Assembly (NCBI GenBank): GCA_016926795.1
Contig: JAFGNW010000062.1
Coordinates: 1-48,522, forward strand
Source of the DNA: Candidatus Zixiibacteriota bacterium
GTDB taxonomy: Bacteria; Zixibacteria; MSB-5A5; GN15; FEB-12
DNA: 48,522 bases
Direction: 5' to 3'
Positions 3,001 to 9,000 of this stretch are shown in pieces. How positions within the stretch are numbered: position 1 is the first letter of the stretch; every line of letters starts with the position of its first letter. A program made the position numbers.

Positions 3001-6000
3001 TGAGACTTATCGCCACCAATGAATACGATTCCGGAAATGCTGATATCATAGGTTTCGGTATCGACAGCGGGCGGAATATCGGTGAGGGTATCAACCTGGG
3101 ACTGGGTCTTAAATACTATACCGGCAGCGCCGACGGCGGCGATATAGACATCAGCGGCTATCAATTATCAGCCGGCCTGACGGCCAATTTTTAGAGAGTG
3201 CGAATTATGAAAAATAAAATAATATTATTAACGCTTTTTATCATGACGGGTTTATTGGCGGTGGTCTGGCTGACCGGGTGTTCGGATAAAATAGTCAACG
3301 AAAACAACGGCCAGGCCGGACTGACCCTGGAACCGAATTTCTCCGTCAAAGGCAACCTCGAGGCGGTCTCGGTATTCCGGGTACGGGTGGAAGCTGAGGA
3401 TATCCCCGTCCCCATTGTAGCCACCCTCAATATGATTAACGGCCTGCTGGTCGGGGATATCGCTGTCCCGGTCGGGCGCAAGCGCAAGATAACCGTCGAA
3501 GCCCTGGATAAGGGACTGAACGTGATTTACCGCGGTGTGACGATACTCGATATATACCCGTCAACGGTCGAACTGCCGGTCATAAGTATCGACCTTATGC
3601 CGACGGTGCCGATAATCAAAGTCACGCCTCATTATACCCGGAAGGCGATGGGGATACCGTTCAGCTGTGATGTGGAAGTATATTCCATCCCGAATATCTA
3701 CAATATCTCTTTCCAACTGGAACACAACAGCGTTATCGCCCGCTTTGATTCGGTAACGAGGGGCACATCGCTGGACATAGATGATAATTTCAGTGCCGAG
3801 ATTGACTGGCTGGATTTTGGCCAGAGAGCTTATGTTACCGCTAGTGCCGCGGGTGAAGGCGGCATAATTACGGACGGCACCGGTTATGCCAATTTAGCCA
3901 CTTTTCATTTCAGATCTTATTCCGTTTGGGATGAAGATATCGATTACATCGGTTTAATCTTGCAGCTCAATGTAATCTGGACCAATGAAGATGGTGTAAT
4001 CGACACCATTCCCCGCGAAGGTATTTTCGTTGACCAGGGGCAGGTGGAAATGCCCCGCAGGTACTGGGAGCTGGCCTTCGGCAGCTCCGGCACCGAAGTT
4101 GGACAGGATATTGTCCAGACACCCGACGGTAACTTTGTCATAGTCGGATACACGAGCTCGTTCGGCGCGACTTATACCGATGCCTACCTGCTGAAAATCG
4201 ATTCGCTGGGTAATTACATCGGGGACAGAACCTACGGCGGGACCAGCTATGACGCCGCCAACGCCGTTATCAACACCCGCGACGGCGGATTGGCTATTGT
4301 TGGACATACCTATGTCTTTGCCGATACAGGTTCTTACGATGTGCTGTTTATCAAAACCGACCTGCTGGGCAATACTATCTGGACCAAAACCTTCGGAACC
4401 ACCTTATACGAGTTCGGTAGAGATATCATACAGACCAGTGATGGCGGCTTTATTATCTCCGGTTCCAGGGAAGATTCGGTCTATTTGATTAAAACCGACG
4501 CCTCGGGCAACGTGGTCTGGGACAAAACTTACGAAGATACGGCCAGCAGTCATATAGGGCACGAAGGTAACTCGATTATACAAACCAGCGATGGTGGTTA
4601 CCTTATAGCCGGTGAGGTTTGGTTCCCGAACGAATCCCGGGGCGGTTACCTTATGAAAGTAAACGCTCAGGGTAATTTTGTCTGGGATTTGTCTTTTGTA
4701 GGTACGTACAATTGTTCTTTTAATTCCATTGACAGAGCCGCCGACGGTAATTATATCCTTTGCGGCGAATACGATTACGATGTTTACCTGGTAAAGATTA
4801 ATTCCAGCGGCGGAGTTATCTGGGAACGGTTTTACGGCGGTGATGACAATGATGAGGGGTACTCGGTGGTTACCTGCTCCGACGGCGGCTTTTTCATAAC
4901 CGGGTATTATTACGACGGAAATTATGACAAGGTCGGCGAAATGTATCTGATAAAAACCGACGCTTCCGGCGAGATCGTCTGGGATACGACTTTCGGGGAA
5001 TACAGCACCGATTACGGTTATTCCGGGATAACAACGGTTGACGGCGGGTATATCTCCTGCGGCTTTACATATAATTATGAAACAGCCGACGATATCCTGG
5101 TTGTTAAGACTGACGTTAACGGTAACACTTATTTGGAGCGACCTTCGAAATAAGACGCCTATTATATTAATGAGAAATAAAAAAGGGCCATAACAGAGGT
5201 TATGGTCCTTTAATTTTTTACCAATTTTCCAGTACTTTTACATATTTTTATTTACTTTCAAGGATCATACTCTCGGCTACTTTGGCGTTGTAAACAACAT
5301 CGGAGCTGATAACACCCTGCTTGCCTTTTATAAACAATCCAAAAATAAACAAATAAGACAAGGTTTTACGGCTCTTACCGGCGTTTTCAATCTCCCCCTC
5401 GAGTTTAATCCGGGAATCATCGGGTGAGCGATAATCCCCCTTGGTCTCGAAATCGACGAAAGCCACTTTTATATAACCCGGCTTCCCACCTTTGCCGGCT
5501 TTTTTGACCTCGATCACTTTAGCCGTCCCCTGGGCGTCTTTCTGGACAATCGTCGTGTTGCCGATTTTGATAGGTTCGGCCAGGTATATCAGAAGTGGTA
5601 CATCCTTGGTCAATTCACCGGAGGTGATTTTCATCCCGGGAGCGAACTTGACTTTGACCTCGGTCCCTTTGGGGATCTGGATTGTTCCCGCCTGAACCCC
5701 GGTACTCAGCATAAAAATGAAAAGGGTCAGGATAATCACCGGCCCGGTAAACTTTCTTCTTATCAATATAGCCATTGGTATCTCCTTATTTATTTAGTCC
5801 CTTATAATATATTTCTATTTTTCAAGTACGGGCAGCTGTTCCTGTAAGTTATTGGGAAGGAATCTGACCACCGCTTTTTTACCCAGGCTTTCGAAAAGAA
5901 TGCCGTTTTCCATCTCGAAAAGAGAGTACTTGCTGTCCAGGGTTTTCCTATCGTCGGCTTTTACGCCCCAGGATTCCTGGTCATTCACATGCGGTTTGTG

Positions 6001-9000
6001 GAAAACGATATGAATGACATCGCCGACCTGCCAGCGCAGGGTATATTCGTAACCGGCGTAAATCTGGGGGTTTTTATCCAGGTCATCGGACCATTCGGGT
6101 TTAGCGCCGGTTTTGGTCACTTCAATATGCAGGTGTCCCTCTTCGGGTATGCTTTCCACTTTAAATTTGAAAGTCTGTTTATTATTCCATTTCTCGGCCC
6201 GGGTGATATAATTGTTGACCATCTGGTAGTCCTGCTTGTTGGCTTTCGGGTCAAGATTTCCTCTGATATCCTTAAGTTCCCGAACCGCTTTATCGAGCCG
6301 GTAGCTCGGGGAGGGATTACCGTTGACTTCTTCGATTTTATCTCCCAGGTCGACTGCTACTCTCTGTGAGACGACTTGTCTGACCTCTTCAACCTTCTGG
6401 GCCAGCAGGGCCTCGGCCAGTTTCTGTTCGTTGGAGTTGAAATCGTTGCCAAACCGTTCCCTGTCCAGTGTCAGCTTCTCCCCGACCGTCTGCCACACGG
6501 CGGTATCGTTCGGCTTCTCGATAACCCGGATGAACAGATCCCAGTAACCGAGCACCCGCTCGCTGCGGGTATATAAAACCGACTGTTCGTTGCCGGTATG
6601 AAAACTTTTTATGGCGTCCCGGAGTTCTTCGTGCTTTTTCTCCAGGATGGCGACCGAATCAACCGGGTCGAGTTTGGGCCAGTCATTTTTATTTTTAACC
6701 AGCAGGGTGAATTCGGTTATATAACCGTTTAGTTGTTTGACCGCTTCCTGCTGATTGTACCGCTGGTAGCCCTCGGCGATACGCTGAGCGGGAGTCTGAA
6801 AATCGGTGAAAATCCATTTGACCAGCTTCGAACGGCTGTAGTTATCATAGGCGTTAATTATGCGGTTCCGTTCCGGGTCGGTGGTGTTGAAAATCTTGCC
6901 CTCGTAAGGCTCCAGTATCTCGCTTTCGATACGGGCCGGTTTATCGTAGAGAAAACTAAAATGATAGATAAACGGCAGGGAATACATAACCATCCAGATG
7001 ATACTGAGAATCGTCACGTATTTAGCCAGGGTGCGAAGTTTCGAGATGCGCCGGTTGCGCAGGATGGAATTTAACAACCAGTAAAATGGTTCTCTGACAC
7101 CGACCGGCTGCATTTTAGCCGGCGGGGCATAAACCGACCGCCCGACCTCGGTGCCGATTTTCTCAGGGGTCTGGCCGGTGGCGGAGATGAAGAAAACCTG
7201 GAAATCGAGGGTACGGGTCAGAACCACCCGGAGAAAATCCTTCAGGCGGACCAAAATATTTCTGACCGAGCCGGCCCAGGCGGAGTTGGAGGCGATTTTA
7301 TTATGGCTGAGAATCTTTTCCAGAAACATCTCGAAATTTTCCGAGACCAAGTACTCGTCCTCGGGGTTTATCAGGCGCACCTGCTGGTCCCCTGAAAAAC
7401 CCGGTAAGATGTCGGATTTAGTGATGACCAACGCCACCGGAATGGGCAGGCGGCTCTGCAGCGAGGACAGGCTTTCGAGCGTATTCACGAACGAGGCGAC
7501 ATGGGCCTGGCTCTCCAGCTCGGCCTTCATCAGCTTGGGGTCGTAAAAGAAAAGGATGCCGTGACTGGCGGCCATGAAATCAGCCACTCTTTCGGGCAAC
7601 TCGCCGCTTTCGGAGATGGAGACGGCCTTGCCGTCATAATCATAAGCCACCACCGAAACGCTTTTTTTCATGTCTAAAATGGCTTTGAATAAAAGGAACT
7701 TGTCTCCCTGGGTGGGGTCGGGAAATTTCTTTTCCCCTCTCAAATCGACCACTGTGCCGGCATCGGAGGATGAACCCAGACCCCAGATAGACCGGTAATT
7801 ATTCAAAAACACACCGGCAGTGGCATTATCGTTGATGGACAGTTGCAGGTTTTTGGATATTTTGCACTCCTCATTGAGGACGGTGAAATATATCGTCTTA
7901 CCGGAGTTGGCATGCCCGAACACCCCGATGCGAATTCCCGAGGGCCAGCTTTTCCCCGGGGCGGGACCTTTTTTGCCTTTTTGTTTGGCCGCGACCTTGG
8001 AACCTTTTTTAAATATTTTTATAATTTTACCAAATTGCATAGCTGTTTCTCCGGGACCGGTTCCACCGGTCGCTTACTTAACCGCTCCCTGTTGTACTTC
8101 GACGGCATGTTTTTGAAAATCCTCAAGTTGTTGGTTATAATAGCTTCCCCATTTTGACGGTATCCAAATAGCCAGGAAAATAAAAATCAATATAATGGCG
8201 CCGTAATACAGATAGGCGGCCCTTCGCTGGGTCATAACCAGCCGGAAATAACGGAAGCTGGTAAAGGTCCCTTTAATTTTGCCCCATATTTCCGTCAGGG
8301 ATGTTTTCACTTTCGACCAGAAATTGGTTTTGCTGAGATATTGCCAATCGGTCAGATAGCGTTCGAAGAGCTTGTTTTTCTTGCCCAGTTTGTTAAAAAT
8401 ATCCACTCTCTGGAGGTGAAATTCGAGCGAGGAGCGGTCGTTTAAGAGGCCGTCCCCCATAGCCATCCGCCGCTGCATCAATTCGAGGAATTTCTGAGGG
8501 TCGCTCATCGCGGCAAAAGCTTCCGGAGTCAAATTGGGGTCCACCGGTCGGGCAAACTTGTTGATATAACGGGCAATCTCGCGCAGGAAAAAGGTATGCA
8601 ACCGATAGTTATTGTTCAGCGAGCCCTCCCGAAAAAGAATCGGAATCAGGTGCTCCTCGAAGAAAGTGGCATCTCTTTTGGTTGGGCGTAAATCACGGCA
8701 GTATAAATAAGCCCGGTTGGACTGACCGTCGGTATCCGCCTCCGACTCAAAATAGGTAATCAAAACCTGAATCACCAGCTGGCGCAAATCGGACGATGTC
8801 AGGGGGGTTTTTTTGACCCGTTCCAGAAAATAGCGGTCAACATCAAGAGCGTCGTCGCGCTGCTGGCGCAGCGTCTTGAACACCGTGTAAATACCGTTGT
8901 AGGTCTGCAGAAAGGCTTCGGTGTCAAACTGGACGTACGCGGTTTCGAAAGTCTCCAGGTACCTGAAAAGGTCCTCTATGTAAGCTTTAATATCCACGGC

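Follow-up and report, generated by a model that had tools for sequence, protein, structure and literature searches.

Type VI secretion systems (T6SSs) require an envelope anchor (PMC10781749), and the membrane complexes that provide it are held to be of two unrelated kinds, TssJLM and TssNQOPR (PMC10781749). Here we describe a membrane GTPase of 741 residues encoded within a T6SS operon of an uncultured Candidatus Zixiibacteriota bacterium. The gene lies on a stretch of 48,522 nucleotides (NCBI GenBank assembly GCA_016926795.1, contig JAFGNW010000062.1, positions 1 to 48,522 of the forward strand), the whole of which was analysed and is called the window below. With a probability of roughly two in three, we regard its product as the inner-membrane GTPase subunit of a T6SS-iii-like envelope anchor, that is, as a counterpart and probably a very remote homologue of TssM.

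Canonical TssM carries the motifs GxxxxGK[ST], hhhhDxxG and (N/T)KxD and hydrolyses both GTP and ATP (Ma et al. 2012, PMC3346141); in Agrobacterium, nucleotide binding and hydrolysis by TssM have been reported to gate assembly or firing (PMC3346141). A preliminary description of this DNA had contrasted TssM, as a "Walker-A NTPase", with the "Ras-like GTPase" of the window, a contrast which these published properties show to be false. T6SS-iii has been reported from Bacteroidota only and as absent from more than 20,000 other genomes, and no homologues of TssNQOPR were found elsewhere (PMC10781749). No T6SS-i-like anchor was found in Bacteroidota, and the question of which anchor is ancestral was left open, with three scenarios (Bongiovanni et al. 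2024, PMC10781749). A further group of relevance here is that of the DO-GTPases, members of GTPase-centric conflict systems with a GAP1 partner and variable effector modules, for which a Walker-B glutamate is said to be the defining hallmark (PMC7159879). We found neither a T6SS in the phyla discussed below nor this GTPase family described in the searchable literature, which omits most subscription journals.

The membrane GTPase and its predicted domains

The protein is identical to JXA92_03415. Its features are as follows.

5815..8040, minus strand: whole GTPase gene, predicted single-pass membrane protein of 741 residues (open reading frame (ORF) with ATG start, stop codon at 5815-5817; homologues; AlphaFold2 model)
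7948..8040, minus strand: N-terminal basic amphipathic segment, residues 1-31, with 10 Lys and no acidic residue (hydrophobic moment, conserved K12 and K15)
7051..7944, minus strand: predicted cytoplasmic G domain, residues 33-330 (Foldseek GTPase matches; Pfam DO-GTPase2 and IcmF-related_N; hhalign)
7894..7917, minus strand: G1 or P-loop, GHANSGKT, residues 42-49 (G42, N45, G47 and K48 invariant)
7711..7725, minus strand: probable G2 or switch I, FPDPT with T110, residues 106-110 (conservation, position in the model)
7630..7641, minus strand: G3 or Walker B, DYDG, residues 134-137, within VVAYDYDG (Y135 and G137 invariant)
7396..7422, minus strand: G4 with its extension, TKSDILPGF, residues 207-215, TKSD being 207-210 (K208, D210, L212 and G214 invariant)
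7174..7194, minus strand: G5 region, FFISATG, residues 283-289 (F283, F284, S286 and G289 invariant)
6955..7029, minus strand: predicted single transmembrane (TM) helix, residues ~338-362 (hydropathy, flanking charges), which prolongs the long final helix of the G domain
6184..6945, minus strand: predicted periplasmic all-helical domain, residues 366-619 (models, predicted local distance difference test (pLDDT) 82-88)
5818..6183, minus strand: predicted C-terminal beta-sandwich, weakly C2-like, residues 620-741 (C2 domains are the best Foldseek matches)

No substitution of G42, N45, G47, K48, Y135, G137, K208, D210 or S286 occurs among 48 Zixibacteria homologues (46-82% identity), and the same G1, G3, G4 and G5 residues are invariant or nearly so in 23 distant homologues, whose G domains are 20-35% identical. 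The nucleotide-binding motifs are thus intact across more than 70 sequences, down to 20% identity, and this conservation in close and distant homologues alike shows that they are not there by chance. The preliminary description had located G1, G3, G4 and G5 correctly, including the numbering of K48 and D210. It also spoke of an ordered G1-G5 set; the four named motifs are conserved as claimed, but no G2 had been given, and FPxPT supplies a candidate. F106 and P107 of this motif are invariant, and position 110, which is T or S in 48/48 homologues, is nearly invariant in the distant set, where the motif is conserved as FPPPT. In the AlphaFold2 model it sits just ahead of the beta2 strand, and T110 is likely the switch-I threonine. 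In distant members of the family G3 reads DYxGE.

A second invariant DxxG-like motif, GTVVDxRGE (residues 95-103, nucleotides 7732-7758), is found in the insert after helix 1 of the Zixibacteria proteins. It is strictly conserved among these and absent from the distant members of the family. In the global hhalign alignment D99xxG102 is paired with the Walker B DtaG of TssM. We did not accept it as the true G3: the distant members lack it, and the motif found at the end of beta3 in the model is the invariant DYxG.

In the full-length AlphaFold2 model (mean pLDDT 82) a Ras-like alpha/beta core is interrupted by two inserts, one of ~60 residues after helix 1 and a helical one between G4 and G5. 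Compared with the PDB by Foldseek, the full model matched GTPases only, namely atlastin-1/3 (E 1.5e-4), SR-beta, Rab/Ras, EF-Tu-type factors, GBP1 and mitofusin. At the level of the model, a GTPase fold is confirmed for the cytoplasmic domain. The preliminary description had made its GTPase assignment depend on such a fold appearing in structure prediction; AlphaFold2 and Foldseek provide it, and the motifs, together with the Pfam and hhalign links given below, bear the assignment out. Sequence searches of the PDB with the GTPase itself and with a profile of the family returned nothing relevant.

The protein had also been termed dynamin-like, and a dynamin- or atlastin-like remodeller might fuse, tubulate or repair the inner membrane around the firing apparatus. 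This would accord with the Foldseek ranking, which places atlastin-1 and atlastin-3 first and also lists GBP1 and mitofusin. However, the TM-scores of the atlastin matches, 0.18 for the query and 0.36 for the target, are low, and small GTPases, SR-beta and translation factors score similarly. Not one of the 71 family members examined matches the Pfam models Dynamin_N or GBP, and a dynamin stalk would be cytoplasmic, whereas the long helical region of this protein is on the other side of the TM helix. We have rejected this explanation as extremely improbable, on account of the weak TM-scores and the 0/71 family-model matches.

The hydropathy of the TM helix (Kyte-Doolittle) peaks at residues 341-359. 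Its N-terminal flank is basic (RNRRISKLRTLAK) and its C-terminal flank acidic, and a helix spanning residues 316-364 of the model runs through the whole segment. By the positive-inside rule these charges place the G domain in the cytoplasm and residues ~363-741 outside. The predicted topology is therefore single-pass, with the C-terminal ~380 residues extracytoplasmic, in agreement with the one helix and the periplasmic part of ~375 residues described earlier. The extreme N-terminus has a helical hydrophobic moment of 0.7-0.79 (residues 2-15), and K12 and K15 are nearly invariant. Residues 1-31 form a helix in the model, at low pLDDT, and this segment is a candidate membrane-binding helix that would replace the TM1-TM2 hairpin of TssM.

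When the outer part was modelled alone the pLDDT was 88. Foldseek found no match to this periplasmic model in the PDB with E < 1e-3, and no TssM chain was present among the 50 best matches listed. The best matches of the C-terminal beta-sandwich are eukaryotic C2 domains (E 0.07, probability 0.98).

A conserved position in a T6SS operon

The T6SS operon is transcribed from the minus strand and encodes, in order, ClpV (two ORFs), TssB, TssC, Hcp, VgrG, TssE, a 554-residue ORF at the position of TssF, TssG, TssK, a protein of 307 residues (p307), the GTPase, and a protein of 175 residues (p175). The GTPase gene thus follows tssG, tssK and one further gene, which is where, as the preliminary description put it, TssM would sit. 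The sheath and tube proteins of the window match the Pfam models TssC (PF17541) and TssD (PF17642), whereas the E. coli T6SS-i proteins match VipB and T6SS_HCP. Because of these matches the core is of the T6SS-iii type at the level of Pfam models, in keeping with the T6SS-iii-like context noted earlier. No ORF scanned in the locus, small ORFs included, matches the Pfam or NCBIfam models of TssJ, TssL, TssM or TssN-R; the preliminary description had allowed that the GTPase might turn out to be an already described T6SS-iii component, and the models scanned gave no such match to TssN-R. Since a T6SS needs an envelope anchor and no other ORF scanned in the locus matches the known components of one, the GTPase is favoured for this function. 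The three genes adjacent to or near it are given here.

9019..10464, minus strand: tssK, directly upstream of the p307 gene (T6SS_VasE and TIGR03353 matches; synteny)
8074..8997, minus strand: p307 gene, 307 residues, with a single predicted C-terminal TM helix at residues ~261-279 (TM prediction)
5248..5775, minus strand: p175 gene, 175 residues, with a predicted signal peptide and a C-terminal hydrophobic stretch (alignment, prediction)

TssK is matched in its N-terminal part only, by Pfam T6SS_VasE just above the gathering score and by TIGR03353 below threshold. No homologue of p307 could be detected in Pfam, NCBIfam or the PDB; its predicted tail-anchored topology resembles that of TssL. 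The p175 protein possesses an AxA-type signal peptide; its GKPG motif is invariant, and a hydrophobic stretch, "LSYLFIFGLFIKGGQG", is conserved close to the C-terminus. Inspection of its alignment revealed no lipobox cysteine; a comparison with TssJ models was not made.

A collection of 5.8 billion proteins contained 262 full-length homologues of the GTPase. All 120 of those listed are ~730 residues long, and the named ones among them come from Zixibacteria, GN15 or unclassified bacteria. Deeply diverged members of 617-1053 residues, which share the N-terminal basic segment, the G domain and the TM helix and vary in their outer parts, were added by a profile search of 1.84 billion representatives; a homologue search with an alignment of the distant members gave 11 proteins. 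With nine query sequences and one genome per GTDB species, 53 loci were found. By the depositors' labels, which are used throughout for these loci, they belong to Zixibacteriota, Krumholzibacteriota, Eisenbacteria, a "FCB group" metagenome-assembled genome (MAG), GN15, and MAGs labelled Ignavibacteriales or unclassified.

Eight of the loci are from MAGs labelled uncultured Ignavibacteriales or Ignavibacteriaceae (L017, L018, L021, L023, L024, L033, L040 and L044). The loci so labelled are as similar to the window as bona fide Zixibacteria loci are (L021, for one, with a phmmer E of ~1e-297 for the window GTPase as query), and the labels of these third-party assemblies may be wrong.

Gene linkage was counted with hidden Markov models built from the T6SS proteins of the window itself. 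Upstream DNA of 2.5 kb or more is available for 48 loci, of which 46 keep the order tssK-p307-GTPase; p175 is present in 50/57 loci, sometimes on the opposite strand. The trio stays together even where the sheath and tube operon is inverted (L058, L061, L065 and L066), and four homologues looked up independently showed the same gene context. The preliminary description had proposed a survey of co-occurrence with T6SS loci, and the outcome is this linkage to tssK and p307 in a T6SS operon. Such linkage is as expected for a core structural gene. The two exceptions form one clade, L052 (9881-11956) and L055 (4395-6461), in which the GTPase gene is not preceded by tssK and p307. Their GTPases are 76% identical to each other and 40% identical to their nearest T6SS-linked relatives. 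Tandem PD40/TolB-like propeller genes are located upstream in both, with a PEGA gene in L052, while p175 and a PAAR gene adjoin the GTPase in L055. Either the T6SS is split between loci in these organisms or their GTPase has a different set of partners.

GTPases are molecular switches, and the protein might accordingly be a regulatory sensor, a transmembrane GTPase whose periplasmic domain perceives envelope stress or attack and whose G domain then switches on T6SS assembly from upstream, much as the threonine-phosphorylation pathway does. Genes for Ser/Thr kinases, PP2C and FHA proteins do occur near many of the GTPase loci, and the periplasmic domain has no recognisable structural homologue. 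We nevertheless consider a sensor improbable: the gene is strictly linked to tssK and p307 within the structural operon in all lineages, also at loci whose retrieved flanks contain no kinase (such as L002), the locus encodes no further candidate for an inner-membrane anchor, and the sequence link of the GTPase is to TssM, a structural subunit.

Affinities of the G domain

By sequence, the nearest family of the G domain is that of the DO-GTPases. Pfam DO-GTPase2 (PF19993) is matched by 48/48 Zixibacteria and 23/23 distant members and is the top match for every one of them (best E 8e-13). The window GTPase scores 20.3 bits, below the cut-off of 27, which some members pass (P0141, 28.5 bits). IcmF-related_N (PF14331), a model of the TssM cytoplasmic domain that starts after Walker B, is matched below threshold by 27/48 and 16/23 members (43/71; best E 4e-5). 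Generic GTPase models of Pfam are rarely matched among the 71 sequences.

For hhalign, the cytoplasmic domains of the same 71 sequences (48 + 23) were compared with a TssM profile of 11 sequences (E. coli O157 TssM and ten diverse plasmid-borne TssM), a small sample. Local alignments with the TssM cytoplasmic domain scored 89-96% (E 2e-6 to 1e-8), and a global, colinear alignment scored 98.5% (E 3.3e-14), E-values in global mode being not well calibrated; controls with reversed or shuffled TssM columns gave 0.1-0.2% (E 0.35-0.51). The locally aligned stretch reaches beyond the P-loop, pairing residues ~150-320 of the GTPase with ~180-390 of TssM from beta4 through G4 and the helical insert to G5. 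In the global alignment the P-loop falls on Walker A and the TM helix on TM3 of TssM, "IPVALVITKSDILPGF" is matched with the TssM consensus "lPVYvv.TK.DLi.GF", and "QVFFISATG" is matched with "GVYfTS"; the TssM consensus "TK.DLi.GF" thereby corresponds to "TKSDILPGF" of the GTPase. At the profile level, this significant similarity points to homology between the cytoplasmic domain and the TssM NTPase (nucleoside triphosphatase). The family matches its DO-like relatives at 100% (E 5e-54), and these relatives match TssM at 97.5% (E 6e-12), with the DO-like set aligned to TssM from the P-loop to G4 only. Given these mutual similarities, the GTPase family, the DO-GTPases and the TssM NTPase belong to one assemblage of TRAFAC type.

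The same data bear on an independent recruitment, in which a membrane-anchored DO-type GTPase was co-opted as the anchor or gate of the T6SS and is an analogue of TssM with a convergent architecture. The uniform Pfam result would be expected in that case, as would hhalign E-values of 5e-54 to DO-like relatives and only 1e-8 to TssM, the DYxGE glutamate of the distant members, and a periplasmic half that is not detectably TssM-like. Some DO-GTPases have been described with TM helices on both sides and with periplasmic domains beyond the C-terminal TM helix (PMC7159879), and one DO-like relative, P0243, ends in a C2 domain. But GAP1, the defining partner in DO-GTPase systems, is not matched in either neighbour of the GTPase (GAP1 models matched none of p307, p175 and tssK). 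The similarity of the GTPase to TssM moreover runs past G4 through the helical insert and G5, where the DO-like set stops at G4, and both its domain order and its place behind tssK and the gene of a tail-anchored protein have their parallel in tssK-tssL-tssM. We therefore think recruitment of this kind rather unlikely, and continue to favour a TssM counterpart of remote common descent.

The relative P0243 (864 residues) is a distant one of DO-GTPase type, and its terminal Pfam C2 domain is matched with E 3e-5. A GTPase with a C-terminal C2-like sandwich consequently occurs outside the T6SS-linked family too.

Several observations weigh against a TssM counterpart. The window GTPase scores 13.3 bits against PF14331, for which the cut-off is 25, and has no match in NCBIfam, including TIGR03348 (TssM); PF06761 and PF06744 were never matched among the 71 members. 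The G domain is, in sequence, far closer to DO-GTPases (E 5e-54) than to TssM, and since DO-like GTPases themselves match TssM, the similarity could reflect shared superfamily membership and not orthology. Beyond the membrane, hhalign gave 0.5% for the periplasmic helical part against TssM and a colinear 4-9% for the C-terminus against TssM IcmF_C, neither of which is significant. The GTPase has one TM helix, as opposed to the three of TssM, in which the NTPase lies between TM2 and TM3. For its partner p307, a link to DotU/TssL was sought by scanning 25 members with Pfam, by hhalign comparison with E. coli TssL and by searching the PDB with a profile, and none of the three gave a signal. Finally, all carriers of the GTPase are uncultured MAGs.

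We do not file the GTPase as a member of the TssM family, since it passes none of the curated TssM models and lacks three TM helices; it is probably a remote homologue with a TssM-like role. Of the two origins that the preliminary description had put forward, a diverged TssM is favoured for the cytoplasmic half, and an independently recruited GTPase is the less likely one. A different fold order, which had been given as a distinction from TssM, is not borne out, as the order is the same after the N-terminal hairpin of TssM. The suggested comparison of the periplasmic part with the C-terminal domains of TssM gave a mixed result: the gross order is similar, but there is no significant similarity by sequence or by Foldseek.

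Neighbouring genes, a proposed mechanism and comparison with known systems

A block of four plus-strand genes (1-5153) is convergent with the T6SS operon and recurs downstream of the GTPase operon in 23-25/57 loci.

1-726, plus strand: CsgG-domain protein (E 3e-14)
575-2080, plus strand: lipoprotein with TPR and CsgG-like parts
2058-3194, plus strand: secreted protein of 378 residues, no family given
3198-5153, plus strand: lipoprotein of 651 residues with a beta-propeller

CsgG forms outer-membrane pores, and the proteins of this block are thus candidates for the outer-membrane part of the anchor.

At 30777-32537 (plus strand) the window encodes a Ser/Thr protein kinase with a PEGA domain, and in many loci a kinase adjoins the CsgG-like block. 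A PP2C phosphatase gene follows p175 in L004 (6176-10382) and L006 (8952-10427), with an FHA protein also in L004. In T6SS-i, control by threonine phosphorylation targets TssL or Fha, and the kinase, PP2C and FHA neighbourhood resembles this arrangement.

The ClpV gene is split (17746-20282, minus strand). The ORF at 18834-20282 encodes Clp_N, AAA and the lid, constituting the first nucleotide-binding domain (NBD1), and that at 17746-18837 encodes AAA_2 and D2-small (NBD2). The two overlap by 4 nucleotides, and the same NBD2 product of ~364 residues is found in two other Zixibacteria (L001 and L002), so that the split looks natural rather than being a frameshift. The distant locus L058 has ClpV as a single ORF.

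Between ClpV and a PAAR protein lies a cargo-like stretch (20463-30358, minus strand) with no family match beyond those named here. Its genes encode a very acidic protein of 211 residues, a one-TM protein of 919, a protein of 291, a DcrB-like protein of 151, a PQQ_2 propeller of 397, a protein of 897 and the PAAR protein of 386 residues, and are likely effector, immunity or adaptor genes. Further along, the product of 34479-36398 (plus strand) bears the C-terminal sorting signals FlgD_ig, CHU_C and Por_Secre_tail, and a C25 (gingipain-type) peptidase and a papain-family peptidase are encoded at 42139-45024 and 45173-47176 (both minus strand). These have the character of cargo of a type IX secretion system and are consistent with an organism of the FCB group.

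By analogy with TssM, the GTPase might work as follows. The TM helix on one side, and possibly the basic amphipathic N-terminus on the other, would keep the G domain against the membrane, next to the cytoplasmic part of the tail-anchored p307, and the TssK baseplate would dock onto the two proteins jointly. The complex might change conformation when GTP (or ATP) is bound, much like that of Agrobacterium TssM (PMC3346141), and hydrolysis might then license recruitment of tube and baseplate, or firing. The periplasmic stalk and the beta-sandwich would reach towards the outer membrane, where contacts could be made by secreted p175 and perhaps by the neighbouring CsgG-like lipoproteins.

We tentatively propose, at slightly less than even odds, that Zixibacteria, Krumholzibacteriota and allied FCB phyla possess a third T6SS envelope-anchor architecture on a T6SS-iii-type core, and that a TssM-type anchor predates the split between T6SS-i and T6SS-iii. 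At the centre of such an architecture would be a TssM-related GTPase that crosses the membrane once, joined by an unrelated partner with a tail anchor, by a small secreted protein and possibly by CsgG-like lipoproteins. A TssM-type NTPase anchor would have been present in the lineage leading to T6SS-iii, and Bacteroidota would later have replaced it with TssNQOPR; if this is true, one of the three scenarios of Bongiovanni et al. 2024 (PMC10781749) is settled. Relatives of Bacteroidota had been thought to lack any anchor resembling TssM; here a T6SS-iii-type core in sister phyla of Bacteroidota is linked to a minimal, probably TssM-related GTPase and not to TssNQOPR, and the system may be an evolutionary intermediate between the two known kinds of anchor. 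The 741-residue, one-TM GTPase would also offer a much smaller model for the conserved, poorly understood nucleotide switch of TssM, and the GTPase, p307 and p175 could serve as markers for T6SSs of uncultured FCB lineages that are missed by TXSScan-type models.

Among known systems, the atlastin and dynamin superfamily shares with the GTPase a membrane-anchored large G domain and supplies its best Foldseek matches in the PDB; it differs in the low TM-scores, the missing family-model match, the placement of the helical region across the membrane and the gene context. The DO-GTPases (PF19993 and PF19975; Kaur, Burroughs, Iyer and Aravind 2020, eLife, PMC7159879) have the closest G-domain sequence and the Walker-B glutamate that many members of the GTPase family carry as DYxGE, and some of them are likewise membrane proteins with periplasmic extensions. 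In contrast to theirs, the loci described here are without a GAP1 partner, zinc ribbons or a variable effector module, and the GTPase family sits in a T6SS structural operon.

The T6SS served by TssNQOPR (Bongiovanni et al. 2024, PMC10781749) likewise has a core of the PF17541 and PF17642 type. The connector gene of that complex is beside tssK, and the complex includes single-pass inner-membrane proteins with periplasmic helical domains. It has no NTPase, however, and the GTPase has no sequence match to the TssN-R models.

TssM, of the IcmF family, is the inner-membrane core of the T6SS-i TssJLM complex, whereas the host system of the GTPase has a T6SS-iii-type core. Where TssM has its N-terminal hairpin the GTPase carries the basic amphipathic segment, its one TM helix corresponding to TM3 of TssM in the hhalign alignments. 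It has the insert of ~60 residues after helix 1, its periplasmic part is ~380 residues as against ~700, and its partners p307 and p175 are not detectably TssL or TssJ (p175 was not compared with TssJ models). The likeness lies in the overall plan. Both proteins have a P-loop domain with GxxxxGK[ST], DxxG and (N/T)KxD followed by "DLxxGF", and in both, for the GTPase as predicted, the NTPase is succeeded by a TM helix, a helical periplasmic region and a C-terminal beta-sandwich, the C-terminus of TssM (PF06744) being described by Pfam as a "C2-like domain". Both are also encoded after tssK and the gene of a tail-anchored membrane protein.

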